44,668 nucleotides of DNA from a virus (taxonomy: Duplodnaviria; Caudoviricetes). The translations under genes were made by a program, and so were the position numbers. Of this stretch, positions 1-44,668 are shown one piece after another. Positions within the stretch are counted from its first letter, which is position 1. Each line of letters opens with the position of its first letter. The stretch covers positions 1 through 44,668 of IMG/VR virus record IMGVR_UViG_3300020042_005850; one strand, given 5' to 3'. The notes under the pieces were generated by a model. The model did not search any database, had not been told where the DNA came from, and was given only the letters and a program-made list of their open reading frames with translations.

Positions 1-120
1 TTTCGCAAATTGCCCAAGTGGGTTTTGCTTGTGCAATAATTCTGCGCATTTCCGGCCAGAGGTGGCGTGAATCATCTTGCGCTTTTTGGCTTCCGGCAAC
101 GCTAAAAGGCTGGCACGGGT
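1..120. repeat. Terminal direct repeat, left copy (assembly overlap of a circular contig)
   Basis: 1-120 is identical to 44549-44668. The methyltransferase ORF reads in frame across the join, giving a unique length of 44548 bp. Confidence 0.97.
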
Positions 121-325
121 AGCCACCGGTAATAATGTCAATTCCTGCAAAGTCTTCACCATTTAAAGTTTTAATGTCGTTGTGAATCGGTACGTCTTGG
201 AAATTATTAGCTAAAACTTTTTGGCAAAATGGGTCTATCTCACAGAACGCAACCGTTTCCATATTTGCCCATCTTGCAGCTAAAGCAAATCCGCCTATAC
301 CGCTGAATAAATCCAAGTGCTTCAT
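1..325 (-). CDS. C5-cytosine DNA methyltransferase, main chain, N-terminal part (continues at 44548-44121; 250 aa in total)
   Basis: Manual translation from ATG 325 gives MKHLDLFSGIGG (motif I, FxGxG), CEID (motif II) and GGYPCQPFSVAG (motif IV, catalytic PC). Confidence 0.95.
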   Translation of the reverse strand, partial: MKHLDLFSGIGGFALAARWANMETVAFCEIDPFCQKVLANNFQDVPIHNDIKTLNGEDFAGIDIITGGYPCQPFSVAGSQKAQDDSRHLWPEMRRIIAQAKPTWAICE

Positions 326-333
326 TGGCGCTC

Positions 334-418
334 ACTTAACAAGTCGTTGAAAATGGACGGTCTGCCCATTTGTGTTTTTAGCTAAATCTTCATGCCGCCT
401 TTTAACTCGGCGTTAGCT
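334..418 (+). mobile_element. attC site
   Basis: R'' ACTTAAC, 5 nt spacer, L'' GTTGAAAA ... L' TTTTAAC, 5 nt spacer, R' GTTAGCT. Confidence 0.9.
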
Positions 419-628
419 GTGTATTGAGAAATAAAAGTTAATCGCGGCATCGTTGTACTTTTCAGCACATTCGTAGGCTTTCTTGTCAGCTTCAATACTG
501 GCGTGCGAATTATGATCACATGCTACGCAACCTTTAGCCGGTGATTTCAAATCATCTTTGCATTTTTCAATCTTGGCCTGTAGCTCAAATTTAATTCTGT
601 AAAGCTCTTCCAAATACTTTTTGTTCAT
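413..628 (-). CDS. Cassette-borne hypothetical protein (71 aa, coiled-coil-like with CxxC)
   Basis: GGAGTG RBS upstream of the ATG; stop in R'. Confidence 0.8.
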   Translation of the reverse strand: MNKKYLEELYRIKFELQAKIEKCKDDLKSPAKGCVACDHNSHASIEADKKAYECAEKYNDAAINFYFSIHS

Positions 629-649: not shown

Positions 650-718
650 ATCTAACAAATCGTTGCAGCGCGATGCGGCAAGAGTTGTCTAAATATTGTA
701 GGCCGCCATTAGTTAAAT
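650..718 (+). mobile_element. Partial attC site (left arm intact, right arm degenerate); array boundary
   Basis: ATCTAAC-AAATC-GTTGCAGC-GCGATGCGGC ... GCCGC, then no proper L' or spacer before GTTAAAT. Confidence 0.65.
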
Positions 719-734
719 TGTATTACCTAATGAT

Positions 735-3254
735 TTATTTCTGCAAGTGTACAACATTGTTTGTAGATTGTACAACACCTTTATTTTTATACACCACTGC
801 AACTTCACTTGGTGGTAAGTGTGAATACAAATGATGGTTACGTATTATCCACAACACTCCAATTTCGCTATTAACTGAGTAGTGACCCTGCATCATTTCT
901 TTCAGTAATGTAGTTAATCGGGACGCGGGTAGCGCATGTTTTATTTCACTGCAAAACATTAGGTCAGCATGGAATGCGGATGCTGTAATTAATACTGCGT
1001 TTATTTCGTTAAGCGTAACTACGTCATTAACCAAAGCACCGAGTTTATGGTTTATCAATGATTCAACAGTAAGCATTAATGGTGATTTACCACTGTCGAC
1101 AATACTACGTAAATAATCGGTCACTGGTGGCGGTAAGCCTGGATTAAATTTACTTATGTCCACTTTTGTGCGTAAGTGATTAATACATATATCAGCACCC
1201 CCATTGTCCATCCACGCCCAGTGATCAGTCCAGTACGCCTGCCACTCAGGTGTCATGTCACCACGCGCATTGCGCACGTTGAGATCGGTCCATAGCGCGA
1301 ATATCCGGCGCGACTGACCTTTTAACGATACCGGCAACAGTGAGTTAGTGGTCATGGTTACTGACACAATATTTCGTACACTCACTTTCTTTGCGAACTT
1401 TTCGTTAACACGCAGTCGATCTGGTGGCGCAGCTGCCAGTGGTTTCAACTTAGCAGAAACAGCCATCGCTTCTTGACGATCGCCCAACTCAGCTTCATTG
1501 ATATGCAGGTATTTCGTTGATAACAAATAATCATTGAAACCCTCTAAAAGCTCTTCAGCATTAATCATTGTATAGTCGCGACCCATTGCTTTAGTCAGTG
1601 GTGCTAGTAACCAATCCTTACCACAACCTTCTCCACTACCAAAGATGATCATATGGTTAATTTTAATATCAGGGTGTAATAACGTGAAAGCCATCCACTT
1701 CAAACAATGTTCTCGCTGTTCGCCACCCCACCCCAGTAAGTCAAAGTGGTTAAGCCACGGTGAAGCATCACCGTCGACGCCTATCACTTGGGCGCTGCTG
1801 GACCATGAATTGCCATACAAAATACCCTGTTCTTCAAAAATAGGAGGCTTCATAGGTGCAAAATCAAGCTTATCAACTTTGGATACTCTGCCGCCTTGAA
1901 GTGCTTCCTTACGTGCGTCTGAATCAAGGTGTGCGTACACGTTCTGGTATGCTTCCGCGCTGTACCACATTCGCTTTTTACGATCAAAAAATTGATTCTG
2001 CTCACCGACGTATATCGTGTCATCGAAAAAGTTAATACCGGCTTTATTATCGCTATACCATGTGGCACGTAGGTCTTTGAGTATTCGGTCAAACTCTCGT
2101 TTATCCCAGTTCATAATATCGCGCACTTGACTATGCCAGTTAATTTTCTGAATTTCAGGTAATGAGTCGATTGTCTTTAAAACGACAGTGGCGATATTTA
2201 CTGATTGAGTGCTGCCAGGTATCTCAGACCGCAGTTGTCGTATAGCGTCTGCGAGCGGGTCAGTAGCTAATATGGGTACTACGGGTGACTCGACCATTAT
2301 TGCGGGTGTTGCTAAATCAGCAAATGCACGACGCATTTGCCACCCGCTTAATACGGAACTAAACCCAGGTGAACTAACTTCGATGTGATCGAGCAGGTTA
2401 CGACCGGTTCTTTCTTGACACGCCCCGTGGTGACATTTAAAACCGATAGTACCGTCACCGTTGGTGAACACCGCTGAACCGCTGTCATCAGCATTAGTAT
2501 GCTCGTCAACCCACGGACAAGTAATATCAAACCTACCGTTACCGCGTACTTCCTTTACATGGATTAAATCAGAGATTTGTAATAACGGATGATCCGCGAT
2601 ATTACTGGCACCATCCACGCGTGACTCACGTCGTGCAGCATTTAAGTCAACGTGAAATGGCGACGCTAATTGTTCGAGAGTTACTGTATTAAACGGGTTC
2701 CACTGCAACATACGGCATTTGAACGGCGCACCATTGACCCACCGTGACGCTTTAGTATTATAACCATCAGGTAGTCGAACATACCGAGTGACACCTTTCA
2801 TCCCTGGGTCACGCCCCTCTGGAGCCAGACCATTGGATACCAAACCATCTAACAAATTTTCAGCTTTTGTACGATCCGTGCAGGGTGTACTCAGTATATA
2901 ACCCCATTGCTCGCTGCCACCGGATGTTTCGAGTACCCACGACGGCGAAGGTAATTTAGATACTTCCGCCATTGATAGTTTCTCACGTACATCATCAAGT
3001 ACAATGCAGTGAGTAGCACTGTACAACGACTTGCGACGACGTGCGTCACCGCGTTCGTCAGCTTTAAATGTCGATATAGTAAAATACTGGTTTGTGTCAT
3101 TACCAAAGCTGTATTGTCCAAAATAGTTGCCTCGCCATGCCATCAAGTGTTTACCAGGAGGTATAGCACCAGGGTCATCTTTGAAGTCAGTAACGTGTAC
3201 TATTGAAACGCTTGTGCCGAAAATCGCACTTAAAAATTCATAATTTGTTGGCAT
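735..3254 (-). CDS. Primase-helicase (RepB/AEP-like primase, Cys/His zinc region, DUF5906/SF3-like P-loop helicase)
   Basis: IVLDD, WVLETSGGSEQWGY and RYVRLPDG primase motifs; CPW..H..C.H..C; Walker A GSGEGCGKD; Walker B-like LHINE. Confidence 0.88.
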   Translation of the reverse strand: MPTNYEFLSAIFGTSVSIVHVTDFKDDPGAIPPGKHLMAWRGNYFGQYSFGNDTNQYFTISTFKADERGDARRRKSLYSATHCIVLDDVREKLSMAEVSKLPSPSWVLETSGGSEQWGYILSTPCTDRTKAENLLDGLVSNGLAPEGRDPGMKGVTRYVRLPDGYNTKASRWVNGAPFKCRMLQWNPFNTVTLEQLASPFHVDLNAARRESRVDGASNIADHPLLQISDLIHVKEVRGNGRFDITCPWVDEHTNADDSGSAVFTNGDGTIGFKCHHGACQERTGRNLLDHIEVSSPGFSSVLSGWQMRRAFADLATPAIMVESPVVPILATDPLADAIRQLRSEIPGSTQSVNIATVVLKTIDSLPEIQKINWHSQVRDIMNWDKREFDRILKDLRATWYSDNKAGINFFDDTIYVGEQNQFFDRKKRMWYSAEAYQNVYAHLDSDARKEALQGGRVSKVDKLDFAPMKPPIFEEQGILYGNSWSSSAQVIGVDGDASPWLNHFDLLGWGGEQREHCLKWMAFTLLHPDIKINHMIIFGSGEGCGKDWLLAPLTKAMGRDYTMINAEELLEGFNDYLLSTKYLHINEAELGDRQEAMAVSAKLKPLAAAPPDRLRVNEKFAKKVSVRNIVSVTMTTNSLLPVSLKGQSRRIFALWTDLNVRNARGDMTPEWQAYWTDHWAWMDNGGADICINHLRTKVDISKFNPGLPPPVTDYLRSIVDSGKSPLMLTVESLINHKLGALVNDVVTLNEINAVLITASAFHADLMFCSEIKHALPASRLTTLLKEMMQGHYSVNSEIGVLWIIRNHHLYSHLPPSEVAVVYKNKGVVQSTNNVVHLQK

Positions 3255-14618: not shown

Positions 14619-17600
14619 TCATTGTTTCTTAACTGGTCCAATAACCAATTCGCGGAATGTCAACTCTTCACCTTCAGCAAGTACATTATAAATATGCTCG
14701 CCACTGTTCCACGCTTGACCAGTACCAGGTATGCCGATCCACGCCGCCGCAAGTTTCGTTACATTTTTAATATCCCGCGCTGAGACATCTTCACCTTCCC
14801 AAACTGAACTAGCAATACCGGTCGTACCTTCGATACCTTTAGCAACAAGGGATGCAACTGGTGACATACTATAATCAAAATCGGTAGCACCCGCATTTGC
14901 AAGATCCCTTACAAACGGTATTGATTGGATCGGGAACAGTGCAAGTTGCAGCGCTAGTTTCTGTGCGATTACTTCCTCGTCATCCTCATCGTCAAACTTA
15001 CCACGTAACAACATCTCGAACAGCACTGGTAAGGTGAAAAAGAACAACCCTTTAGCTGCTAAGTCAATCGCATTATATCTACCCGACTGAGTACCCTTCA
15101 CAATATCGCGCTCGATATTCCACAACGATGAGAAGAACGTCATAAACATAGTAAGCGAACGGTGTATCTCACTTTGATTGCGAAACAGTGCCGCCATGTC
15201 TTTGGTTAAACCCGAACCTTGGATCTGTTCGACCATCCAATCACCGTACTGATAGGCACGTTGCTCGTCACCATGCTCTTTCATCGCTTTGAGGTAACCA
15301 GCGTACCAACTTGGCAGATCCACCATGTAGAGCTGAATATAGGCGATATGTAACATCGAAACAGTCTGTAGATTTGCGAGTTTGCCAGACTTGTTTTGTA
15401 GAGTGCTCAACACGTTTTGGATTTCGCGGTCGAAACTTTGTGCGCGATGACTCAATGTTTTCGAGTTAGCTGAAGCAAACTCCCAAGCACCTTTGATACT
15501 ATCGGGACCAGCTAATATAGTACGGATTGCCTGAATCGTATTAGCCGCACCAGCCTCACCCATTGTGTTGAAGATACCTGATGTTTGAAGGAGTCCAGTT
15601 GTAGCCTTGAACCCCATCACACCGAGGGTAGTACCAAGGCGCAACTTGCCAAACGCTCTTTCAATAAATGTTTTGGTCTTGGTTTCACCCCCGTCTTTCG
15701 CAATGTCATTTAACCACGGTTTCAGTTGCGCGAATTCCTCTGGTCCCATCTTAGCCTTGATTGATTCAGCAATTGACTTGTTACGAATCAGCTTGTTGAC
15801 CTCACGCACCGCGTCATGGTGGGTGATAAAGTGGATCACCTCTTGGAAGTGGTTAGGTACTACGTCCAAGCTCAAACGAACCGGTGCATAGTATTTAGTA
15901 CGCTCGTTAGTAGCTGACGCATTCACCGATGATTGAATACTACCCGTAGTGCTAAACATTGATTCTGTGTTAGCGTTCAATCGTTCATCATTCAACTCAG
16001 CTTTATGTGACCGGTTAGGGTCGTACTTCATTGGATAGTAACCACCGCTGAACGTACCGAATGGCGTGACCACGGGCGTCGCTTCAACCTTCGGTGGAGT
16101 GAGTCCTGTGGTGCGACGGTGTACTTCAGCCAGTTGCGGATAAAGCTGATCCATACGATCCCAGATAAGCTGTACCAACTGCCAATCTGATTTGGTCATA
16201 TGTTTGAGCACAGCCTGCAACTTATGATTGTTGAAGCTGATCTCAGCGTCATTTTCAGGATTCGCCCAACCCTCACCCAGTAACATTTTACGAAGGTTGC
16301 CCGCGTTACCTGTGTTGAGCGCCACCGCTAATATCTGGTGGCCCATCAAGTTACCATCATTTTTATCGTCTTTAATTTCTTCAATAAACACTTTTGCATT
16401 GTGGCGCTTCTTATCCGCGTTACTGCGGTTCTCGATAGCTTTCATCACATCATTACCGATCTGTTTCCACAGTGCGACCTCAGCATGCTTAGCATCATTA
16501 AACACTTGCACGAATACACTGTGAGTTAAACCCACACGTTCACCACCATCGAGCCAGCTTGCAAGGTAAGGAATCTTAGTCATTTGACCCATTGCCCAGC
16601 GGCCATAGTTCTTATCTTCAACTACGGTGGTGCGTTGTGACTTGAATCTAGCTGGCAATGCCGACCAATGATCCACTAGCTTGTTGACCAGTTTCTTGAA
16701 TGTGATTTCTTCACCCATACGAACCATTTTGTTGGAGTAGCGCGCTACGTGTTCAATATTCTTAACAGAATCCGATACACCTTGAATGTCGTTGTACTTA
16801 ACATTTTTCCAATGGTCTTTATACAACTCGTTCAGCACCACTGGTGACAGTACAAGACCATCGCCATCGAGCCCCATACGCTCAGCAGCCCATGTGTTAA
16901 TGTCTTGATTATGCTGTTCAACCGAGGTGAGTGTCGCTGATTTACGGAACTCGAATCGTTCAAGGATTTTGACGATCTGCTCCCAGTAACCGTTCTCAGC
17001 TTTCATAATTTCTTCGCGCACTTCCTTCTTGTTGTAGCGACCCATAGTGTCAACAATCTTGGTGATGTTGTTCTGTGCCGCTACCGCTTCCATTCCTAAG
17101 AAGTAATTCATTACTTGACGCGCTTTAGCTGCTGCTGCACCTTCCATGTTACCTTTCGCAAACATGGAAGCCGCTTCCATAGCCGCCTTGATCTCAGCAT
17201 TACGGTACTTGTTCGGGTGAATCTGGCGGTAGCTCAGCTTACCAATTGTTTCTTCAGCAAGGCCACGGATGATTTCCCGGTCGATGCTGCGTTGACCACG
17301 GCTGAGTATCTTCAGCTCAGCAAGAATCAAGCGGCCGCGTTCTTCATTCTGCACTGCGTCATCAGCTTCCTTCTCAATGGAACCATCGTTCAAGATGTCA
17401 CCATGTCGATCTAACATAATCACTTCAGCACGATCGGCAGCAGCCTCACCGATGGGTTTAGCTTTGGTGATAGCGTCGATCATCTCAGCGCCAGAACCGT
17501 AACCGAAGAATGCAGCAGCCTCGTCGGGGTGAACACCAGTGGCACCCTTAGCGGTCATGTTGGTAAGTGCTGAAGGTATACGGGTTGAGGTGATACCTCG

Positions 17601-20600
17601 TGCATCAGTTTTCTCAGTACCGTAAAGTTCTTTTACAGTAGCGTGGTCAAGTTTGAAGTCACCATTACGTAAGGTGTCGATTGATTTATACACCGGCAAT
17701 GCTTTCAATACTGTCAACTCAGTGTCGATGAGATCTTGTTTCTCATCCTTCCATGCTTGCTTCTTGGTGCGGGTGATCTGGGCGATTAACTTGTCGCGAA
17801 GTGTTTCAGTAGACGCACCTTTAACCTTTTCTACTCTTTCATTGTATGCTGTGAACTCAGCCTCGGTCATACCCGCCGCCGCTGCATCTGTGAACATTGG
17901 TGCGAATCTTGCACGAGCTTCAGCCATCTTGATTTGTTCTTCAGTGGCGATCATGGTGTCGAATACTTTACGCATCTCGTCATCAAGTTTTACATTAAGC
18001 CCTTTGATCGACTTGTAAATCTCAACGAACCAACGGGCGAAGGTACGGAACACATTACGCATCTCGATAGAAGGCGCTTTACCTTCCATCAGGTACGCTT
18101 CCCATCCACGGGCGAACTGTTCATGTGTGGTAATGCGAAGTGCTGAGTCAATGTCAGTATCACCAGTGGTGCCGTTATCGAGGTACAGGGTCACATCGCT
18201 GGGGGTGACCACCAATGGTGGACGAGTGAAGTCAGGTTGTTCTTTAGCGATAATCTCGTTAGCTTCTTTTGCAACATCAACCGCGTTACGCTTAAACCAG
18301 TTGTGGATACCTTCAACTTTTTTACCGTTCGACTTCAACTCAGTCTCATACATGAAGTGTGCGAACTCGTGCATGAACGTGGAAAGGTTCGATGCTTCAG
18401 TTAAACGAATGAGTGAGTTTGCGGGTTCGTAGTAGCCGCGTGACTTTTGTGCAAAAGATTCAGGCGCACTCTTACTCAACGCTTCAGGTACAGCCAGCTC
18501 CATGCCGCCCATCACCACGATAGCCTCACTCATGGGAACGTCAGCATCAGTCGCTATGGATCTTACACGGCGTTGTTCTGGGGTGAGCTTCAACCGAGCT
18601 TGTGTGATACGCGCTTCGATCTCGCCACCTAACGCGAGGTAAATGTCATGCGGTGTCTTGAAGCGTACCGAACTCGCAACCACTGCCGCGCGCTTAGCTT
18701 TACCAAGCAGCTCTTGACGTGGTTTCAATAACTCTTTAGCTTTGGATGCTTCGCGACTAAGCGCCTTGATCATACCCGCCATGGTGCGGGTATCGTTCTC
18801 AAACATGGTGATTTGAGCTTCAGGGATCTGCGACTTCAGGAACGCACCAATGCTGAACGCAATGTCACGTGCAGCTTCTTGACGCTTTGGTCCACTGCGA
18901 GGTATGTCGTAGAACTTGCGTTGTAGGTCATTAGCTTCACGGTTACCACGGAACTTGTCGTCATAGATCCATTGTGATTCGTTCAGGATGTTACGAAACA
19001 CACCGCTTGGTTTATCACGGGTGGAGTATTCAATGAGGCGTTTGTAGGATTGGTACATCAGCGCGTTGCGTGACAGCTCCGCAGCCTTATCAACGGTTTT
19101 AAACTTCCACTGGTTGCGGTAGTCCCACGTATCCAGTTTGTTGGTCATGTCAGCATCGAGGCGTTGCAGTACCGCCTTCACGCTATCGGTGAAGGGTTTA
19201 CCGTCGTTGCCGCCGCGTGCGAAATCTTCAAGCTCTTGAATAGCGTGTTGGAGTTCATGCATCAGGGTTGATAGTTGCTCGCTTTCGCTCTTGCTGTTGT
19301 TTATTGCAATGGTATTTGTTTTAGCATCATAGTAACCATTTTCATTATCGGGCATTTTCTCAAAAACTAAGTTGATATTGCGAAGTGATGGGTACGCTTT
19401 GAACAGTGCAGAATGGTTCAGCACTCCACCAACGGTGTTATATTTTTTAACCTTAATCTCAACTAATTCAATAACTTGTTCACGTTGGTTTTCATCAAGT
19501 GACCCGAAACTTTCATCGAACAATTCACGAGCCGAACTCCTTACCAAATGACGATGTTCAGGAATCTCACTCGGCTTAATCGACCACTCAGCCTCATGGT
19601 CACTAATCTCATAGCGCCACTTACCATCCACCCCCATGAACCAACCGGTGTCACGCTGGATCGCGTTATTACCTAAACCCTGTTCGCGCATGTGTTTAGC
19701 ACGATCAAGCTCAGCCATTGGCACGCCTTGTGCATTGACGCCTACGAACTGGTTGAACTTAGACGGTGTAGCTGGTGTATATGTAAAACTGATCGGCGGC
19801 GTGTACGCTTCACCATCGAAGTCTAATGTAACGTCATCCTGTTTTAGATAACTGATTTTTTCATAGTAGGATTTCGCACTTTTAGTGGAATCTACAACCG
19901 CAAGTCGTTTACCGGTTTGATCCGCGTACTTTTTAAGTTGGTTGATTACAGACGTACCACGACCCGTACCTGTTGCAACTTCAGCAAGATCATCTAATTT
20001 CTTAGCAGCAATACTGGTGAGATAAATGTTATTTTCGTCTTCACGAATAGACGCTTGTACTTGAGCATTGTCAAATTTCAATACAACACTTTCACCCAGT
20101 ACCGAGTCTGGTTTACCCTCTTTGACCACTTCACCGAGTGATTTAACACTATCCATAGCCGTACTGAACGACTGATTCAACGCATCCAGCTCAGCACCCA
20201 TGCGAGCAGCTTCGCCCGTCTGTGGCCCCTGAATCACAAGGCCAGATTGTTCATAAGCCTGTTGAATAGTAATCCCGTTATCACGCGCAAACACGGTAGC
20301 CCACGCGGGCACAATGCGCGCCATCGCATCCGCATTCTTAGAATTGATTCGACCGGTATCTATCAACTGCTGCTTAACAGTATCAAATATCTGTTGAGAC
20401 TCGACATACTGACTCGCGTTCTCATTCGCACGAGCCATCATATCAGTCATATAAGTTTCGGTTTCATCCTGCGACTGCTTCAAGCGAAACGGTGACGGGG
20501 CGGTACCGTTCAGGTTCATAAACTCACGTAACGCGGTGAAGTGTTCTGTTCCTGCAATGTGAGTAGCGAAGTCGGCAATGGGTATCACAACATCACTACC

Positions 20601-22082
20601 GAGTGTCGCCGCGTCATTGACACCTGCTGCTAGTAACTTGACCGCTGGTGATTGTTTATCGTCAACGGTGTCGAGATACAACTTAGCTTGTACCCCATCA
20701 ATGAATACGTGAGTGTTGTTATCACCGTTGGCCTGTGACATGAATTGGTGAAATGAATCAGTATCACGGCGACGCAACTCTGAGTTATTGGCATCTACCG
20801 CGATTGAATCAATGGTGGTTTGATCAGTTTGAAACTGTGATATTTCTTCATCACGCTTTTTAGCAAAGTGTTCGATGGTCTTACGCAATCCACCTACACC
20901 ACCGGCTTGAATAGAACCCGCAACCACAGTAGAACCGAGCGTGATTAATTGACGCTCAGCTTGTAACTTGATTTTTTCTTCAAGTGTAGTGGCGTTGTTC
21001 CACTCATCATCAATACCGTTCAACACTGCATTGGTAGTTTGCCCCGCTGTTGCTACTTGCTCACCTAATACTTCGGTAACGGCGTATTTTAATATTTTCT
21101 TTTTAAGATCACCACCATCGAGAGCACTACCTAATGCCTTTGTAGGAAGGTATTCAGTACCCATTTCGATAATAGAATCTACTGAACCATAGAGTAAAGC
21201 ATCGTCGTGACTCAACCCACTGCGACGACCTTCTGCGTAAGAATCACCGAAGGTAAACGTACCCGCTGATACAATCGCAGGAGTGGCGCTGCGGGTAGCT
21301 AAGGAGGCAATTAAACCAGGTGCCGATACCATTACAGACTCAACTCCACCACGTAACATTTTCTGACCCATGTTCAAGTCGCGAGGTGTGTTTTCTGAGA
21401 TCTCTTTATGAAGGGTTGCGATACGCTCATTAACTTTAGCAGTGTTCGCTATGAATTCAGGTGACGAGGTATCTTCAACACCTAGGGTTTTCGCCATTGC
21501 AATCTGTTCAGGTAATAACTTTGAGTAATCAATACCGTCACCCTCGGACGACGCTTGTATCAGACTTCTGCCGGCTAGCTCCATTCTGCGAATGAAATTA
21601 CCCCCTGAACCTTCGAATGTATTGCCGATACGGTTCTCAGTAATTACCTCGGTATCGGCTGTGAATTCAGTAACTTTTCTCAGTGCTGATTCAATCTTCT
21701 TCAACACACTAATGTCATCATGAGCAATGGATGCTTTGTTGAAGTCACTCATGAATTTACCGGTAGCTGGGTGATCTGTAAAATCCTCACTAGCCACTTT
21801 TTGAGCACGGTGATCTGCTTCGATACCTGCGGGGTCAACCTCAACATCAGCGACAGGAATGCCCGTGACTTTACTGAGGTTGTTCAGCTTGACTTGTTGA
21901 TCTGGATTTATGCGAGCAGCTTCAGATAGTACAGCACTTGCCGCGGGTTGGTCTTCAAACATGGACAAGTCGAGAGGGGAGTCGGGGGTTAATGACCCCT
22001 GTTTAGTAGTGATGCCTTGAGTCTGTTGTTCGGTGGTAGTGGGTTGGTCTTCAAACATTGACAGGTCTAAGGTATCACTCAT
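14619..22082 (-). CDS. Large internal virion (DNA ejection) polyvalent protein, 2487 aa
   Basis: Position after the tail genes; largely helical; GWFMGVDGKWRYEISD, two HExxH motifs (HELQH, HEFAH) and a GNAT-like GTGRGT segment. Confidence 0.8.
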   Translation of the reverse strand: MSDTLDLSMFEDQPTTTEQQTQGITTKQGSLTPDSPLDLSMFEDQPAASAVLSEAARINPDQQVKLNNLSKVTGIPVADVEVDPAGIEADHRAQKVASEDFTDHPATGKFMSDFNKASIAHDDISVLKKIESALRKVTEFTADTEVITENRIGNTFEGSGGNFIRRMELAGRSLIQASSEGDGIDYSKLLPEQIAMAKTLGVEDTSSPEFIANTAKVNERIATLHKEISENTPRDLNMGQKMLRGGVESVMVSAPGLIASLATRSATPAIVSAGTFTFGDSYAEGRRSGLSHDDALLYGSVDSIIEMGTEYLPTKALGSALDGGDLKKKILKYAVTEVLGEQVATAGQTTNAVLNGIDDEWNNATTLEEKIKLQAERQLITLGSTVVAGSIQAGGVGGLRKTIEHFAKKRDEEISQFQTDQTTIDSIAVDANNSELRRRDTDSFHQFMSQANGDNNTHVFIDGVQAKLYLDTVDDKQSPAVKLLAAGVNDAATLGSDVVIPIADFATHIAGTEHFTALREFMNLNGTAPSPFRLKQSQDETETYMTDMMARANENASQYVESQQIFDTVKQQLIDTGRINSKNADAMARIVPAWATVFARDNGITIQQAYEQSGLVIQGPQTGEAARMGAELDALNQSFSTAMDSVKSLGEVVKEGKPDSVLGESVVLKFDNAQVQASIREDENNIYLTSIAAKKLDDLAEVATGTGRGTSVINQLKKYADQTGKRLAVVDSTKSAKSYYEKISYLKQDDVTLDFDGEAYTPPISFTYTPATPSKFNQFVGVNAQGVPMAELDRAKHMREQGLGNNAIQRDTGWFMGVDGKWRYEISDHEAEWSIKPSEIPEHRHLVRSSARELFDESFGSLDENQREQVIELVEIKVKKYNTVGGVLNHSALFKAYPSLRNINLVFEKMPDNENGYYDAKTNTIAINNSKSESEQLSTLMHELQHAIQELEDFARGGNDGKPFTDSVKAVLQRLDADMTNKLDTWDYRNQWKFKTVDKAAELSRNALMYQSYKRLIEYSTRDKPSGVFRNILNESQWIYDDKFRGNREANDLQRKFYDIPRSGPKRQEAARDIAFSIGAFLKSQIPEAQITMFENDTRTMAGMIKALSREASKAKELLKPRQELLGKAKRAAVVASSVRFKTPHDIYLALGGEIEARITQARLKLTPEQRRVRSIATDADVPMSEAIVVMGGMELAVPEALSKSAPESFAQKSRGYYEPANSLIRLTEASNLSTFMHEFAHFMYETELKSNGKKVEGIHNWFKRNAVDVAKEANEIIAKEQPDFTRPPLVVTPSDVTLYLDNGTTGDTDIDSALRITTHEQFARGWEAYLMEGKAPSIEMRNVFRTFARWFVEIYKSIKGLNVKLDDEMRKVFDTMIATEEQIKMAEARARFAPMFTDAAAAGMTEAEFTAYNERVEKVKGASTETLRDKLIAQITRTKKQAWKDEKQDLIDTELTVLKALPVYKSIDTLRNGDFKLDHATVKELYGTEKTDARGITSTRIPSALTNMTAKGATGVHPDEAAAFFGYGSGAEMIDAITKAKPIGEAAADRAEVIMLDRHGDILNDGSIEKEADDAVQNEERGRLILAELKILSRGQRSIDREIIRGLAEETIGKLSYRQIHPNKYRNAEIKAAMEAASMFAKGNMEGAAAAKARQVMNYFLGMEAVAAQNNITKIVDTMGRYNKKEVREEIMKAENGYWEQIVKILERFEFRKSATLTSVEQHNQDINTWAAERMGLDGDGLVLSPVVLNELYKDHWKNVKYNDIQGVSDSVKNIEHVARYSNKMVRMGEEITFKKLVNKLVDHWSALPARFKSQRTTVVEDKNYGRWAMGQMTKIPYLASWLDGGERVGLTHSVFVQVFNDAKHAEVALWKQIGNDVMKAIENRSNADKKRHNAKVFIEEIKDDKNDGNLMGHQILAVALNTGNAGNLRKMLLGEGWANPENDAEISFNNHKLQAVLKHMTKSDWQLVQLIWDRMDQLYPQLAEVHRRTTGLTPPKVEATPVVTPFGTFSGGYYPMKYDPNRSHKAELNDERLNANTESMFSTTGSIQSSVNASATNERTKYYAPVRLSLDVVPNHFQEVIHFITHHDAVREVNKLIRNKSIAESIKAKMGPEEFAQLKPWLNDIAKDGGETKTKTFIERAFGKLRLGTTLGVMGFKATTGLLQTSGIFNTMGEAGAANTIQAIRTILAGPDSIKGAWEFASANSKTLSHRAQSFDREIQNVLSTLQNKSGKLANLQTVSMLHIAYIQLYMVDLPSWYAGYLKAMKEHGDEQRAYQYGDWMVEQIQGSGLTKDMAALFRNQSEIHRSLTMFMTFFSSLWNIERDIVKGTQSGRYNAIDLAAKGLFFFTLPVLFEMLLRGKFDDEDDEEVIAQKLALQLALFPIQSIPFVRDLANAGATDFDYSMSPVASLVAKGIEGTTGIASSVWEGEDVSARDIKNVTKLAAAWIGIPGTGQAWNSGEHIYNVLAEGEELTFRELVIGPVKKQ

Positions 22083-40265: not shown

Positions 40266-40390
40266 GGCAGATTGGTAAGGGTGTGGAATCTTTCACAGCT
40301 AAGTAAATACATGGCCTACGCCGCATTTTCACATTATCAAACCTAAGTTACTGATTTTTATAGATTCGATTTTGTGGAAATGCGGCCTGA

Positions 40391-40412
40391 GCCGCTGAAT
40401 AAACTGTTATGT
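40391..40412 (+). mobile_element. Partial attC (right arm only); left array boundary
   Basis: GCCGCTGAAT-AAACT-GTTATGT, preceded by an inner stem GCCGCATTTTCACA/TGTGGAAATGCGGC. No intact R''. Confidence 0.65.
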
Positions 40413-40413
40413 T

Positions 40414-40566
40414 TTAGTCTTCATATTCCATTATGTGCAAAATTGCTTGTAGCTCTTCTGCTGTAAATGTGCCATCTAATTGAACCTCTTCATCGTCACC
40501 AATAAATTTAATCTCTCTATCTTTTTTAATATCTTTGATTATTTCTCTTGCCTCAAAACCTCTCAT
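40414..40566 (-). CDS. Cassette hypothetical protein (50 aa, not in the ORF track)
   Basis: MRGFEAREIIKD...LHIMEYED; AGGTGA RBS. Confidence 0.7.
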   Translation of the reverse strand: MRGFEAREIIKDIKKDREIKFIGDDEEVQLDGTFTAEELQAILHIMEYED

Positions 40567-40573
40567 AAGTCAC

Positions 40574-40738
40574 CTATTTATTTTTCAGGCTTTCCGCACA
40601 ACCAAGCAGCACAATTTTAAAAAGCTCCGGTTTGTCTTTGTGCCAGTTTATTAAAGTCTGCGCGCTCTGGCCGGTTAATTGCTGAACTTGAAGCAGGTTT
40701 TTTAGTCCTGCCTCTTTTGCCTGTTGGCTTGGGGTCAT
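40574..40738 (-). CDS. Small HTH DNA-binding protein (54 aa, not in the ORF track)
   Basis: MTPSQQAKEAGLKNLLQVQQLTGQSAQTLINWHKDKPELF; HTH pattern; GAGGTG RBS. Confidence 0.75.
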   Translation of the reverse strand: MTPSQQAKEAGLKNLLQVQQLTGQSAQTLINWHKDKPELFKIVLLGCAESLKNK

Positions 40739-40899
40739 TTAAGCACCTCAAAATAATGGCTTTCAATAAATCCACCGCCAACTGCAAAACCTGAAGATGT
40801 TATTTTTTCAGTTCTAACGGTCCAAACCTCACCAGGTTTAAATTTAAACCTAGGAAGAAACGCATCTTTTACAATGCGCACATTTGTATATTTCTCCAT
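40735..40899 (-). CDS. Cassette hypothetical protein
   Basis: MEKYTNVRIVKD...; coupled to the upstream and downstream ORFs. Confidence 0.65.
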   Translation of the reverse strand: MEKYTNVRIVKDAFLPRFKFKPGEVWTVRTEKITSSGFAVGGGFIESHYFEVLK

Positions 40900-40900
40900 A

Positions 40901-41047
40901 TTAAACCACCGAACTGTATGTGCCATTTTCGTACGCAGTGCAAGAGTAAAAGGCTTTGCCTCTTGGTTTTTGGAGCTTGAGAAGTGTGCGCCCGTTAACT
41001 TTCGTTGATTTTATTACTTTGTATTCTTGGCCGTTTATTGTTAACAT
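40901..41047 (-). CDS. Cassette hypothetical protein (48 aa, basic, not in the ORF track)
   Basis: MLTINGQEYKVIKSTKVNGRTLLKLQKPRGK...; GAGGG RBS; directly after a promoter. Confidence 0.7.
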   Translation of the reverse strand: MLTINGQEYKVIKSTKVNGRTLLKLQKPRGKAFYSCTAYENGTYSSVV

Positions 41048-41079
41048 TTTTTAACCCTCGTTTGTGTTTGTATGTTGTT

Positions 41080-41107
41080 AGTATAACAAACTATTTGAAG
41101 GAATCAA
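41080..41107 (-). promoter_or_regulatory. Sigma70-type promoter internal to the first cassette
   Basis: TTGATT-16 nt-TATACT with an extended -10 TG. Confidence 0.7.
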
Positions 41108-41130
41108 GCTTTATTTAAAACTATTTGATT

Positions 41131-41334
41131 TTATGTGTTCGGTGCTGAAAGAAATCGCCAATGCGTGTAGTTGTGTAAATAGTTATGGTCACAATCCCCA
41201 TATTTGTCTATCTTATCAATGTAGTGTAAAGGTGAGTCTCTCATTGTTTTTTCGCCATCGTAAAATTCAACCCAAGTCTCTATTGGTGGCGTGCGGGGTT
41301 TTTCACCAGTACGCCATATTTTTATCCATTCCAT
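41131..41334 (-). CDS. DUF551-like small phage protein
   Basis: MEWIK...P...THW..L..P pattern; GAGG RBS. Confidence 0.6.
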   Translation of the reverse strand: MEWIKIWRTGEKPRTPPIETWVEFYDGEKTMRDSPLHYIDKIDKYGDCDHNYLHNYTHWRFLSAPNT

Positions 41335-41349
41335 ATCTATAACCTCTAT

Positions 41350-41562
41350 TTAGTCTATTCCAAGTTCCGTCACATTTACTGGTTCTATCGTAAAGTTGCA
41401 GCCAAACTGTGCAACATTAAACGCTAAATGTTCGTCACAAAAACAACCATTGGCGCGTACTATTTTTCCCGTTGCTGGTTTTTTGCAGTTAAAAAACTTG
41501 CACATAACAAGCGTATCAACTGGACAAGCCAAGGCGTTGCTGTTTTCTGTCTCAAGTTCCAT
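41350..41562 (-). CDS. Cassette Cys/His protein whose N-terminus is encoded inside attC
   Basis: MELETENSNALACPVDTLVMC is read from the attC left arm; C...C...CDEH. Confidence 0.6.
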   Translation of the reverse strand: MELETENSNALACPVDTLVMCKFFNCKKPATGKIVRANGCFCDEHLAFNVAQFGCNFTIEPVNVTELGID

Positions 41563-41619
41563 AAATTTCACCGTGTTAAAAGTTTTTCATTTGCTTGCGC
41601 AGTTATCCGAGCGTTACAT
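41502..41619 (+). mobile_element. attC site
   Basis: ACATAAC-5-TATCAACT ... AGTTATC-5-GTTACAT. Confidence 0.88.
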
Positions 41620-41622
41620 TCA

Positions 41623-41820
41623 CTAGCCTAACACCTTATTCAAATTCTCAAACTCTGAAAAAGTAATGCTTCGAGTGAAAGTTAAAACCCATTTTTCCGG
41701 CTGTTTTTGTGTGAACAAAATTAGCTCATTAAATTCACCCTCAAATACATCCATATCGTAGTTCCAAGGGTTTGAATTATTAAACTTGTTCTGCCACATG
41801 TAAGAATAAAACCAATACAT
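41623..41820 (-). CDS. Cassette hypothetical protein
   Basis: Strong RBS AGGAGGTGA. Confidence 0.8.
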   Translation of the reverse strand: MYWFYSYMWQNKFNNSNPWNYDMDVFEGEFNELILFTQKQPEKWVLTFTRSITFSEFENLNKVLG

Positions 41821-41851
41821 AAATCACCTCCTAAATTAAATTGCTATGCAA

Positions 41852-41924
41852 ATGTAACCAGTCGTTGGTACTCGCTCGTTCCTCGCTGGACGCACTACGT
41901 GCGCCGCACAACTCGGCGTTATGA
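41852..41924 (+). mobile_element. attC site
   Basis: ATGTAAC-CAGTC-GTTGGT ... GCACAAC-TCGGC-GTTATGA. Confidence 0.88.
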
Positions 41925-42137
41925 CTCTAGCGCTAGTTTTGCTTTTTCTTCTACTCTGTCAAACCCAACTCCGTAAACATTACCTTGGGTTTGTTGCACG
42001 TAGCGTAACCCGCTTCTAGCATCTAGCAACGCATCTTCTAGCTGGCGTGCTTGTCGCGCAAACTCATCCATAGTCCACTCGTCTGGCCTATCAGTTCTAT
42101 ATCGTTCTAATTTTTCGCTTAGCTTCACTTTCATCAC
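41919..42137 (-). CDS. Cassette hypothetical protein
   Basis: GGAG RBS; stop in R'. Confidence 0.8.
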   Translation of the reverse strand: MMKVKLSEKLERYRTDRPDEWTMDEFARQARQLEDALLDARSGLRYVQQTQGNVYGVGFDRVEEKAKLALES

Positions 42138-42149
42138 TCCGGTATTTGG

Positions 42150-42237
42150 TCATAACAAGGCGTTCCAGCACGGATGCTGCAAGAACTCGCCTTGTAGTTG
42201 GTTTTGGTGCTGGCACCGCTGAACATTGGCGTTATGT
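42150..42237 (+). mobile_element. attC site
   Basis: TCATAAC-5-GTTCCAGC ... GCTGAAC-6-GTTATGT. Confidence 0.92.
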
Positions 42238-42489
42238 AGCCATCCAATCAAGATTATCCCCGTACTTTGAGCGTAATGCCGTTGAAAACTCTTCGCCAGT
42301 GGCAGGAGTTTCATTTCTTTGTACTTCTAGCCATTTTGCAATTCTTTCGCGCTCGGCTATTTCTGCTTCCATTACAGATTGTTTTAATGCCTGCAATAAA
42401 CTTCTACTATTCGGCATTCCAACATTTTCCATAAGCTGCTTGTATCTTTCATCTGTTAACATATCTAAATCCTCGCAAGCATCCGACAC
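42232..42489 (-). CDS. Cassette hypothetical protein
   Basis: Fills the cassette from R'' to R'; start uncertain (GTG 42489 or internal ATG). Confidence 0.75.
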   Translation of the reverse strand: MSDACEDLDMLTDERYKQLMENVGMPNSRSLLQALKQSVMEAEIAERERIAKWLEVQRNETPATGEEFSTALRSKYGDNLDWMAT

Positions 42490-42573
42490 ATAACAAAAAT
42501 ATGAACTGGATGCGGTTTAAGTTGGGCGCACTTCTGTTTAGTTAGAAGCGCACCAGTTATATTGGCGTTAAGT
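42488..42573 (+). mobile_element. attC site
   Basis: ACATAAC-5-TATGAACT-GGATGCG ... CGCACC-AGTTATA-5-GTTAAGT. Confidence 0.92.
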
Positions 42574-42768
42574 GTTCTCAATCATCGAGTTCGGCACTCG
42601 TAATTGAAGTTTTTCATAAATGCTTTTTGCTAACCGGTAGTCTTCTTTTTCTAAGTATTCTGGGTTTAGGTCTTGCACGGCGTTGAACCACTGGCATACC
42701 TTGTAAAGCTCGTTTTGCGTAAGCATTTTTTGAACAAGTGGGTCACCGCCTTGATTGTCTTGTGCCAT
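42568..42768 (-). CDS. Cassette hypothetical protein
   Basis: GGAG RBS; stop in R'. Confidence 0.75.
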   Translation of the reverse strand: MAQDNQGGDPLVQKMLTQNELYKVCQWFNAVQDLNPEYLEKEDYRLAKSIYEKLQLRVPNSMIENT

Positions 42769-42808
42769 TTTCTTTAACTCCGTAGTTAAATTTTTACCGT
42801 TAGAATCT

Positions 42809-42917
42809 ACTTAACAAGTCGCTGAAAGGCGACGGTTCATAAATCTGTTTTCTGTTCTGGCATCTTCATGCCGCGCTTTACTCTCATTCCCTGCCGCAAT
42901 TTATAACGGCGTTACAT
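42809..42917 (+). mobile_element. attC site (composite, with two right arms)
   Basis: Left arm ACTTAAC-AAGTC-GCTGAAAG; an incomplete matching arm GCCGCGCTTTACTC; then a second arm GCCGCAATTTATAACGGCGTTACAT. Confidence 0.75.
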
Positions 42918-43106
42918 TTCAATGTTGTTGAAAGCCTTAACCTTTATTTCAACCTCGGATGGCCGTATTGGGTAGAATTTATCATCAATAATTTTTCTGC
43001 AAATATCCAGCAAATTGTCTTTTGATAAATCCGCGTCAATGATTCCAAACCAAAATTTATTTACGTCTTTATTCCAAAGCTCAAACTGCAAAAAATATGT
43101 TTTCAT
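42912..43106 (-). CDS. Cassette hypothetical protein
   Basis: MKTYFLQF...; GGTGGT RBS; stop in R'. Confidence 0.78.
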   Translation of the reverse strand: MKTYFLQFELWNKDVNKFWFGIIDADLSKDNLLDICRKIIDDKFYPIRPSEVEIKVKAFNNIEM

Positions 43107-43118
43107 ACCACCACCAAA

Positions 43119-43201
43119 ATGTAACAAAGTTATCAAACGGATGCGGCTATAACACCGCATTATTTATTTTCGTACTGGCACCGTTTATAACGGCGTTATG
43201 T
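43119..43201 (+). mobile_element. attC site
   Basis: ATGTAAC-5-TATCAAAC-GGATGC ... GCACC-GTTTATA-5-GTTATGT. Confidence 0.92.
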
Positions 43202-43390
43202 GTACGTCCTGCACTTGCTTTCCATGTGCTGGCTTGATTCAAAAAATCCATGCGCCCAATAATCCTCAAAATCACAATCTTTGCATTTCGTGAATGCTTC
43301 GCTAATAATTCCGTTGTCAGTATCATTAGCCTCAACTTCGTTTTTCCCTCCGCATTTGTTGCAAGAGTCTTTAACGTGGTAAGTCGCCAT
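43196..43390 (-). CDS. Cassette zinc-ribbon protein
   Basis: CNKC...CKDC; GGAG RBS adjacent to R''; stop in R'. Confidence 0.78.
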   Translation of the reverse strand: MATYHVKDSCNKCGGKNEVEANDTDNGIISEAFTKCKDCDFEDYWAHGFFESSQHMESKCRTYT

Positions 43391-43400
43391 AAGTAGCTCC

Positions 43401-43484
43401 ACATAACCAGTAAATGAACGCGACGGAATTAGAGCGTCGCAATGTTTTAAATCTTACAGCCGCAGCGTTATTAAGGCGTTATAC
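43401..43484 (+). mobile_element. attC site
   Basis: ACATAAC-5-AATGAACG ... CGTTATT-5-GTTATAC. Confidence 0.9.
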
Positions 43485-43709
43485 GGCGCTCTTGTCGTCC
43501 AGCGTTCTAACTCGCTCAACATTGCCGCACTTGTTGCACTTAACGCGTAAATGGTCTTTTTTGGCAGTAAGCTTGTAAAATAAATCATACTCGCTGCTTT
43601 GCACGAACTCGGTTTCAATCCGCTTTAGAGAAGACGAGTCAATTACGTTTGTTCTAACTATGAATTTAGTATCTAAATCTTTGCTTCCGCACTTATTACA
43701 GTTTTCCAC
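43479..43709 (-). CDS. Cassette zinc-ribbon protein
   Basis: CNKCG...CNKCG; GTG start likely; stop in R'. Confidence 0.75.
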   Translation of the reverse strand: MENCNKCGSKDLDTKFIVRTNVIDSSSLKRIETEFVQSSEYDLFYKLTAKKDHLRVKCNKCGNVERVRTLDDKSAV

Positions 43710-43721
43710 TTCGTCTGCCCC

Positions 43722-43807
43722 GTATAACAAGTAGCGTCAAAATGACGCGGTTTAAATATCAGTTTTTAATGCTTACTCCCAGCGCGCATTTGCGCTAAGC
43801 GTTAAAT
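43722..43807 (+). mobile_element. attC site
   Basis: GTATAAC-5-GCGTCAAAATGACGCG ... CGCGCATTTGCGC-5-GTTAAAT. Confidence 0.88.
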
Positions 43808-44038
43808 ATCATCCGCAACACTGTACGCTGTAATTAGCGTCAGGCTCGATGGAACTTCATATTCGTGTCGTTTATTGATTTCGATAAGCTTTTCAATTGC
43901 GGCTTCTTCTGAATCATGGCCGCCCCAACTATTAAGTGATTCAGTATTGTAATATGCGCCGAATTCTTTTGGCTCTTTCAGCAACCCATCGCTCGTTAAT
44001 TCTTTCCAGTAGTATTTTTTCTTAATCATCGCAAGCAT
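43802..44038 (-). CDS. Cassette hypothetical protein
   Basis: Fills the cassette; stop in R'. Confidence 0.8.
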   Translation of the reverse strand: MLAMIKKKYYWKELTSDGLLKEPKEFGAYYNTESLNSWGGHDSEEAAIEKLIEINKRHEYEVPSSLTLITAYSVADDI

Positions 44039-44043
44039 CCCAA

Positions 44044-44126
44044 ATTTAACGCCGTTATGAAATTGACGGAAATAGAATTCCGCGTTTAGTTAGTTCGTGC
44101 AGCCGCAATTTATAACGGCGTTAAGT
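44044..44126 (+). mobile_element. attC site (fully paired outer stem)
   Basis: ATTTAACGCCGTTAT-G-AAATTG-A-CGG ... CCG-CAATTT-ATAACGGCGTTAAGT. Confidence 0.9.
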
Positions 44127-44548
44127 GGCGCTAATAGCCCGCAAAAGCTCGTAGGCCACCATCGGATCAATTGCGTTACCTAATGATTTATTTCTGTCCA
44201 TCCTATTGGGTAATTCATCATCCACTCTAAGCGCAGGGGGCTTAATTCCCCATCGCCCAATCGCACGGCCTCGCCAGTCCACTCCAAACCGTAAACCGCA
44301 GCGTCCTTCATTGTTGCTATCTTTTTCCGGCCCTTGCGCGCAGTATTCATTTGCCGCGCCATCGCTTCTGGTGACCTCGCTTTCATTGCGTCCATTGCTT
44401 GCGGCGTAGGCCACAATAAAAACTCGCTCCCTGTTATGGTTTGCACCTGTGCTGAGAGCTGGAACAACAAACGGTTGGCAGGCGTAACCAAGGGCTTCCA
44501 AATCGTGCAACACACAGTCCAGTCCCAAAGCGATGTGGCCATAAACAT
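44121..44548 (-). CDS. C5-cytosine DNA methyltransferase, main chain, C-terminal part
   Basis: ENV (motif VI), HNRERVFIVA (motif VIII) and SLGNAIDP (motif X). No motif IX in this frame. Stop TAA lies in the attC R' box. Confidence 0.93.
44180..44548 (-). CDS. Putative second (beta) subunit of the methyltransferase, overlapping in the +1 frame (start ATG at 162 across the junction; 176 aa)
   Basis: Open frame MVKTLQELTLLP...LWPTP...LSPLRLEWMMNYPIGWT, whose C-terminus resembles C5-MTase motif IX. It is fully nested in the main gene. Confidence 0.75.
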   Translation of the reverse strand: MFMATSLWDWTVCCTIWKPLVTPANRLLFQLSAQVQTITGSEFLLWPTPQAMDAMKARSPEAMARQMNTARKGRKKIATMKDAAVYGLEWTGEAVRLGDGELSPLRLEWMMNYPIGWTEINH

Positions 44549-44668
44549 TTTCGCAAATTGCCCAAGTGGGTTTTGCTTGTGCAATAATTCTGCGCATTTC
44601 CGGCCAGAGGTGGCGTGAATCATCTTGCGCTTTTTGGCTTCCGGCAACGCTAAAAGGCTGGCACGGGT
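44549..44668. repeat. Terminal direct repeat, right copy
   Basis: Identical to 1-120. Confidence 0.97.

Follow-up and report, generated by a model that had tools for sequence, protein, structure and literature searches.

A podophage cassette array with an attI-like site and attC sites whose genes lie on the attC bottom strand

What could move a row of attC cassettes in a phage that lacks an integrase, and why all cassette genes run against the orientation known from integrons, were the questions raised by one locus of IMG/VR record IMGVR_UViG_3300020042_005850. The whole stretch of 44,668 nucleotides, here called the window, was analyzed. The record carries direct terminal repeats and was found to be a complete circular phage genome of 44,548 bp with a 120-bp terminal repeat (1-120 = 44549-44668). 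The phage is a podophage, with podovirus-type portal, capsid and internal virion genes, and a family-A-like polymerase, an SNF2 helicase and a primase were also encoded. Its array consists of an attI-like site and eleven attC cassettes with the genes on the attC bottom strand (Table 1), and it is probable that the phage, having no integrase of its own, gains, loses and rearranges these cassettes by means of the integron integrase (IntI) of a Cellvibrio-like host. No tyrosine recombinase (PF00589) was matched anywhere in the complete genome, no recombinase was found in a Pfam scan of 46 open reading frames (ORFs), and Rfam gave no match within the window. By the tests run, the recombination sites are of attC and attI type and the locus appears to work like an integron. 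Lacking intI, it falls short of a complete integron, and as an attC cluster without nearby intI it belongs with the CALINs. Canonical cassettes carry the ORF on the top strand upstream of their attC, whereas all cargo of the window was on the bottom strand.

The preliminary description of this DNA had taken the plus strand as the attC top strand, and the pairing of the arms agreed with it. When plus was read as the top strand, 6-7 of the 7 L-box positions were paired in nine array sites, with the extra base at left-arm position 4; when minus was read as the top strand, just two of those nine sites scored, each with 5/7. The attC architecture comprised R''/R' boxes (RYYYAAC/GTTRRRY) with 5-nt and 5-6-nt spacers to L''/L'. 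Most sites escaped a scan in which the spacer was set to exactly 6 nt, and that scan was replaced. By pattern scan, 9 sites were detected in the 3,908-bp array, none on the opposite strand and none in the remaining 40,640 bp, while 100 shuffles gave a mean of 0.01 sites and a maximum of 1. A covariance model, which contained one mis-set pair, missed the 118-bp attC 1 and served as a finder only, returned 10 matches, all on the plus strand, of which seven were its training sequences and the other three lay at 41852, 42814 and 650. The eleven attCs included ten with both R boxes and one half site. The R' of each site was the exact complement of the R'' of the next site at 10/11 junctions, with one mismatch at the last, as expected for units passing through a circular intermediate. 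Since the genome is circular, the array continues past the join to about 700. The attC sites do begin at 41502, as had been proposed, but the array itself starts 1.1 kb further left, at the attI-like site, and crosses the join. All nine TAA stops quoted earlier (413, 41919, 42232, 42568, 42912, 43196, 43479, 43802 and 44121) were confirmed as ORF ends inside an R' box.

The same polarity was seen beyond this phage. Pattern scans revealed arrays in more than 30 other IMG/VR contigs, and across the array set the left-arm bulge model (L'' position 4 plus the second bulge) beat the right-arm model in 191/191 attC bodies, which had been selected with the left-arm model while both strands were scanned. 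The GA[CT] motif was present in 156 of these bodies. L boxes varied widely between sites yet remained paired (149-191/191 per position, in sites selected for pairing).

Cargo genes were assigned to the minus strand, in agreement with the earlier claim, by several features. Shine-Dalgarno-like motifs were located upstream of 14/16 minus-strand genes. In cassette 4, the most ambiguous one, the minus ORF 42232-42489 had 41 database matches including itself, compared with 1 match for the overlapping plus ORF 42146-42493, which ends in R''. In a variant contig of cassette 3 from a public run, 19 of the 24 listed differences were at third codon positions of the minus ORF. No RNA data set containing this sequence was listed among public runs. 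No plus-strand promoter-like site (Pc) was detected near attI by a consensus scan, the only kind of scan applied, and no promoter was identified for the primase transcript.

The attI-like site was supported by homology and position, which would place an attI at the array head as in a complete integron. Its R box (40406-40412) was the exact complement of the R'' of attC 1, and 31/34 positions were identical to a site in the Cellvibrio-related genome G083. The same motif headed other phage arrays, on the top strand. The 14-base core was found in 41/151 relatives of genome G004, against 5 control matches. Among the bacterial loci fetched, 7/30 had a divergent intI adjoining the motif (six full-length, about 225 bp away), and in loci with intI the motif was followed by ordinary sense cassettes. 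To avoid circularity, a profile was built solely from bacterial sequence, namely the 26 bases preceding the core. This profile ranked 40406 first among 66 candidates in the window (15.1 vs 4.2 bits), and its best site exceeded the background maximum in 16/43 array loci, 16/16 of these on the top strand and left of the array. A stricter core pattern matched 11/34 viral records, many of which are fragments, with no control match; among cultured phages, no attI match was found. Relative to each other, attI and attC are oriented as usual and only the genes are flipped, which puts every attC 5' of its gene and attI at the distal (3') end of the row. Cellvibrio-related genomes (L126-L155) were also noted to carry several attI-like sites each, as many as 7, many of them without adjoining intI and some heading cassette arrays.

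The orientation of ORFs relative to attC was surveyed under one rule for viral and bacterial arrays, after segments with mismatched R boxes had been dropped (20 viral, 5 from metagenome-assembled genomes (MAGs) and 66 bacterial). In the viral set (34 loci), 113 of 128 clean cassettes were antisense, 4 were sense and 11 were unassigned. Bacterial arrays gave the opposite picture, with 60 sense, 34 ORF-less and 4 antisense among 98 cassettes. The four "sense" viral and four "antisense" bacterial cases resembled shadow ORFs by eye. In phage-like MAG contigs, 16/18 cassettes were antisense. The control contained a Neptuniibacter chromosome in which one phage-type attC carries a sense gene, so the strand call was not biased by the method. 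Moreover, ribosome-binding site (RBS) motifs preceded the bottom ORF in 100/142 segments and the top ORF in 5, ten homologous gene pairs showed 135/180 single-base codon changes at position 3, and R boxes were complementary across the cassette in 128/148 viral segments. The window capsid had one weak match among the 34 array-bearing records and several carriers looked lambdoid or temperate; by these comparisons, the array carriers are not one phage family. Units were reordered between arrays, with shared genes having different neighbours. The proposed class of mirror-image cassettes, in which attC stands 5' of its gene, was therefore borne out by the viral-bacterial contrast, by attI at the 3' end of the genes, by the co-travel of gene and 5' attC described below, and by the same geometry in phages with their own IntI.

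Phage attC arrays as such have already been published, and the mirror polarity appears undescribed in the literature searched. In its available text, Qi et al. 2023 (PMC9892861) reported phage CALINs often with DNA methylase cargo, and IntI1 recombined five phage sites, several with bottom-strand preference. These clusters resemble the window in having attC sites, no integrase and methylase cargo. That text terms the arrays typical and, in the parts available, makes no mention of antisense genes or of attI in lytic phages, unlike the window with attI and 11 cassettes, all antisense. When the arrays of that study were re-scored, TJE1 was canonical, both sites scored in MW202573 had bottom-strand annotated genes, and H101 and P12002L were mixed; the mirror layout is thus neither universal in phages nor unique to this family. 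No description of antisense phage cassette arrays was found in the literature searched, with subscription journals outside its scope, and the figures or Dryad file of PMC9892861 may show orientation. Separately, phage H101 (L087:3920-5990) showed convergent ORFs on both strands with repeated promoter-like leaders, a layout unlike the mirror class.

Cellvibrio-related sedentary chromosomal integrons share with the window the attI motif, the attC architecture and the polarity to attI, and attI without adjoining intI also occurs there. Their cassettes differ in being sense or ORF-less and longer (median 444 vs 257 bp; attC 130 vs 85 bp), with essentially no common cargo. In two long host arrays of genome G081 (L207, L208), roughly half of the cassettes were ORF-less repeats of about 370-400 bp from few families. 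The canonical attC, as described in the available text of Nivina et al. 2016 (PMC5027507), matches the window sites in extrahelical bases, unpaired spacer and R-box placement, with crossover predicted in R'. According to the same text, promoter-facing cassettes were never observed in mobile or chromosomal integrons; inverting a whole cassette would invert its attC too, whereas in the window the reversal is confined to the gene. Among known exceptions to the usual layout are, from the portions accessible, gene-less cassettes with antisense promoters (bioRxiv 10.1101/2023.11.21.568050) and inverted-integrase integrons (PMC13323075). As those portions present them, they concern promoters or the direction of intI, unlike the window, where protein genes lie on the bottom strand throughout the array.

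Which attC travels with a gene was assessed from genes shared between arrays. The 5' attC was more similar than the 3' attC in 13/13 non-syntenic pairs, which are not fully independent; three syntenic pairs and one pair beside attI had been left out. The 95th percentile of background was exceeded by 7/14 5' sites and 1/13 3' sites. In the pairs L013/L016 and L019/L061, identity stopped two bases after R'', and a third pair broke inside the leader. Leader families (R'' complement plus RBS) were reused before unrelated genes in different phages, for example at 44031-44050 and 628-656 of the window. These results suggested that the travelling unit is usually the gene plus its 5' attC and that parts are also exchanged, through top-strand recombination or short homology. 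The strict one-strand picture given earlier is softened by the attC bodies that are sometimes replaced directly after R'' and by the folding results below.

The enzyme was sought in the phages and in their candidate host. A tyrosine recombinase was present in just 2/34 other array-bearing records, and neither was an IntI. The recombinase beside array L049 was rejected as the partner enzyme, having no TIGR02249 match and looking like a lysogeny integrase. An IMG/VR scan with a single IntI query recovered no relatives; with an IntI alignment, 7 loci were retrieved, of which L093, L095 and L096 were above the TIGR02249 cut-off. These three come from a different, GC-rich phage group. In each, the genes are followed on the same strand by an attI-like site and then by intI, and the top strand of the attCs runs away from intI. 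This layout shows the attCs in their canonical polarity relative to intI and attI, with only the genes flipped. These phages were also observed to be temperate, with intI closing the cassette row in the same orientation as the cassette genes, directly upstream of the region with the lysogeny integrase.

The host is inferred to be Cellvibrio-like. Two uncultured Cellvibrio MAGs contain such phage contigs, and the IntI of G004 was 82% identical to that of one of them. A spacer in the CRISPR (clustered regularly interspaced short palindromic repeats) array of the relative G081 matched attC 4 (42493-42524) at 31/32 positions with an adjoining CC. This array is presumably type I-F-like by its repeat, with CC as its protospacer-adjacent motif. 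Since its fit to other contigs was as good or better, the spacer is a marker of the attC family and not of this phage alone. Several spacers of the same array (L163:1380-1535 and L211), two of them adjacent, matched attC arms or attC-gene junctions common to many phages, and other G081 spacers matched phage contigs of the same MAG.

Under the reading that host IntI serves the phage array, the enzyme would act in trans, folding and cutting the minus (bottom) strand as in ordinary integrons, and new cassettes would enter at attI, the far end of the phage transcript from the primase side. Read-through of cassette genes from the primase side, as first suggested, is plausible, the genes being co-oriented with the primase, and cassette 1 may have its own promoter. 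An ordinary host cassette entering the phage attI would face the phage transcript and be silent; conversely, a phage cassette captured at a host attI would be oriented against Pc and likewise be silent, as the preliminary description had noted and as geometry predicts. This mutual silence would result from the genes being flipped relative to attI and attC. The accessory genes are likely swapped from a pool common to unrelated phages, and the polarity probably prevents this phage pool, made up of small accessory and counter-defence genes, from mixing with that of the host even though one enzyme serves both; such a purpose is our interpretation.

Several observations weigh against host IntI working in this way. 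The attC length differs between phage (median 85 bp) and host (median 130 bp), and recognition of phage attCs by the host enzyme is assumed. The bottom-strand folding advantage was nearly lost in phage sites (mean -0.4 kcal/mol vs -5.0 in host sites); the bottom strand was favoured in 30/45 phage and 45/45 host sites, the host sites being longer, which inflates the gap. For 5/9 window sites the computed probability of the recombinogenic fold was below 0.03. In three pairs with 93.5-99.6% identical genes, the 5' attCs were only 48-63% identical (background mean 56%), so a gene does not always keep its attC. The absence of mixing between pools could also come from plain selection after random capture.

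Some of these points would be explained if both strands were recombined, with IntI cutting R' on the bottom and R'' on the top strand, so that gene modules with 7-bp inverted cores and attC bodies move partly independently and the flip may stem from inversion of the gene between R' and R''. The breaks two bases past R'' beside a nearly identical gene and leader, the almost vanished folding asymmetry and the fully paired spacer of attC 9 fit such a scheme, and top-strand recombination at low rates is described for some natural sites in the available text of PMC5027507. We nevertheless consider it quite unlikely, since all attC bodies have one polarity, attI is always at the same end, the 5' attC was better conserved in every pair compared, and a search of the bacterial arrays compared recovered no phage cassette gene in sense orientation (tblastn of the phage cassette proteins gave one weak 32-aa match). 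Maintenance of the array by homologous recombination, with attC arms and leaders as homology patches for phage proteins and the integron features as a relic, is highly improbable in our judgement. It would account for the RBS leaders reused by unrelated genes, the pair that switches inside a leader, the chimeric attC 5 and the broken attC 11, and the phage does encode a single-stranded DNA-binding protein and a DUF2800 protein. Exchange by homology alone, however, would not preserve diverse yet paired L boxes, the R-box complementarity of the viral segments or an attI at the array head in unrelated phages.

Other explanations concern the reason for the flip rather than the machinery. Replication could drive it instead of a separation of pools: genes would run with the fork and the attC bottom strand would lie on the lagging template, giving more folding and shuffling without head-on transcription. 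This account is compatible with use of host IntI, and we regard it as somewhat unlikely. By the available text of PMC5371416, recombination increases when the bottom strand is the lagging template, an arrangement that the majority of chromosomal integrons avoid, and exposure as single strands would benefit the many phage sites with a low intrinsic probability of folding; against this, GC skew was not separable here from coding-strand bias, and canonical phage arrays exist (TJE1). The preliminary description had instead favoured host-toxic genes that the flip keeps silent if a host integron captures them. The geometry permits it and 123/137 cassette proteins of related arrays had no Pfam match, yet the idea is very unlikely given the named cargo. 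The remaining 14/137 had a Pfam match, 11 above the cut-off: three DNA methylases, three Lar (one just under the cut-off), Tad2, PNK phosphatase and a PAPS-reductase-like protein, with DUF551 twice, DUF7220 and two weak matches besides. The window itself adds a C5 methylase. Although about 90% of array cargo is unnamed, these results favour phage accessory and counter-defence genes rather than host toxins. PADLOC gave no match for 15 window proteins, no captured phage cassette was detected in the host arrays compared, and sparing a host that has captured its cassette would bring a phage little gain.

A wider picture can be offered tentatively: unrelated phages of one host group might run a mirror-polarity cassette economy on the host integrase, in which the flip silences host anti-phage and phage counter-defence cassettes reciprocally, and new cassettes might arise from phage ORFs placed behind reusable R''-plus-RBS leaders with exchange of attC bodies. 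If so, cassette genesis would be directly observable in this phage pool. Cassette formation is called largely unknown in the text available for PMC5371416, and integrons have recently been viewed as stores of anti-phage genes (bioRxiv 10.1101/2024.07.02.601686, available text). Integrons are otherwise seen as bacterial devices, while here a phage retains only the docking site and the cassettes, with reversed gene polarity; if the array is active, phage adaptation would be supplied by the host's integrase. The family also reveals what homogeneous bacterial arrays hide, namely one gene joined to different attC bodies, one leader shared by different genes, and a cassette gene that has an ordinary phage homolog, all of which bear on the open question of cassette formation. 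The common attCs also serve as CRISPR targets across many phages.

Table 1. Coordinates of the array, its genes and the flanking primase gene (aa, amino acids)
Feature	Position	Strand	Remarks
attI-like site	40376..40412	+	R box 40406-40412; predicted crossover between 40406 and 40407
Cassette 1 cargo	40414..41505	-	six small ORFs: 40414-40566, 40574-40738, 40735-40926, 40901-41047, 41131-41334, 41350-41505
Sigma70-like promoter in cassette 1	41080..41107	-	weak prediction
attC 1	41502..41619	+	118 bp
Cassette 2 gene	41623..41820	-	65 aa; strong RBS; stop just outside R'
attC 2	41852..41924	+	73 bp
Cassette 3 gene	41919..42137	-	about 70 aa; stop in R'; third-position bias
attC 3	42150..42237	+	88 bp
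Cassette 4 gene	42232..42462	-	76 aa; stop in R'
attC 4	42488..42573	+	86 bp; 42493-42524 matches CRISPR spacer of genome G081
Cassette 5 gene	42568..42768	-	66 aa; stop in R'
attC 5	42809..42917	+	chimeric; left part resembles attC 10 (334), right arm resembles attC 9 (44044)
Cassette 6 gene	42912..43106	-	64 aa; stop in R'
attC 6	43119..43201	+	83 bp
Cassette 7 gene	43196..43390	-	64 aa zinc-ribbon
attC 7	43401..43484	+	84 bp
Cassette 8 gene	43479..43709	-	76 aa zinc-ribbon; stop in R'
attC 8	43722..43807	+	86 bp
Cassette 9 gene	43802..44029	-	75 aa; stop in R'
attC 9	44044..44126	+	83 bp; central spacer fully paired
Cassette 10 gene, 3' part	44121..44668	-	C5 DNA methyltransferase, 250 aa; start at 325, spans circle join
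Cassette 10 gene, 5' part	1..325	-	same methyltransferase; 1-120 repeats 44549-44668
attC 10	334..418	+	85 bp
Cassette 11 gene	413..628	-	71 aa; stop in R'; homolog in array L019 (35%)
attC 11	650..700	+	left arm only, right arm lost; R'' one mismatch vs preceding R'
Decayed methyltransferase 3'-end copy	700..745	-	fused to broken attC 11, overlaps primase stop
Primase-polymerase gene	735..3254	-	flanks array, not cassette; co-oriented with cassette genes

Individual cassettes bore traces of past change. The chimeric attC 5 suggests loss of a cassette through imprecise deletion. In attC 9 the left and right spacers were exact complements of each other, which pairs a region that is normally left unpaired; template switching may be the cause. 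The decayed copy next to attC 11 shared 19 identical bases (723-741 vs 44176-44194, region 44140-44200) with the methyltransferase gene, and a second methylase cassette probably once stood at 700-745. Within the methyltransferase gene, a second-frame minus-strand ORF (44180-44647) matched phrog_1008, also labelled DNA methyltransferase. The cassette 7 product had a 66% identical homolog in Pseudoalteromonas phage C7, with no attC around the homolog. In cassette 1, ORF 40574-40738 was an HTH-like (helix-turn-helix) regulator (phrog_409), and two genes recurred in arrays L015, L039 and L056 with 87-100% identity. Sigma70-like matches were no commoner than in shuffles, yet the 41080..41107 stretch was common to other contigs. 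Promoter-bearing cassettes recurred in phage arrays L039, L015, L049, L060 and L069, and a 592-bp cassette was 98% identical in L049 and L060, adjoining attI in both.

By primase, the closest cultured relatives were Vibrio phages with 48-53% identity, which carry small, co-oriented accessory genes downstream of the primase; no attC array was found at the corresponding locus in the nearest of them, and an IMG/VR scan with the primase recovered no relatives. In the record of one relative, Vibrio phage 1.185.O, four CRISPR spacers are annotated within a coding region (L023:22-239). Elsewhere in the window, 14619-22082 encodes a virion protein of 2,487 aa with LPD22, LPD23 and a metallopeptidase-like domain.

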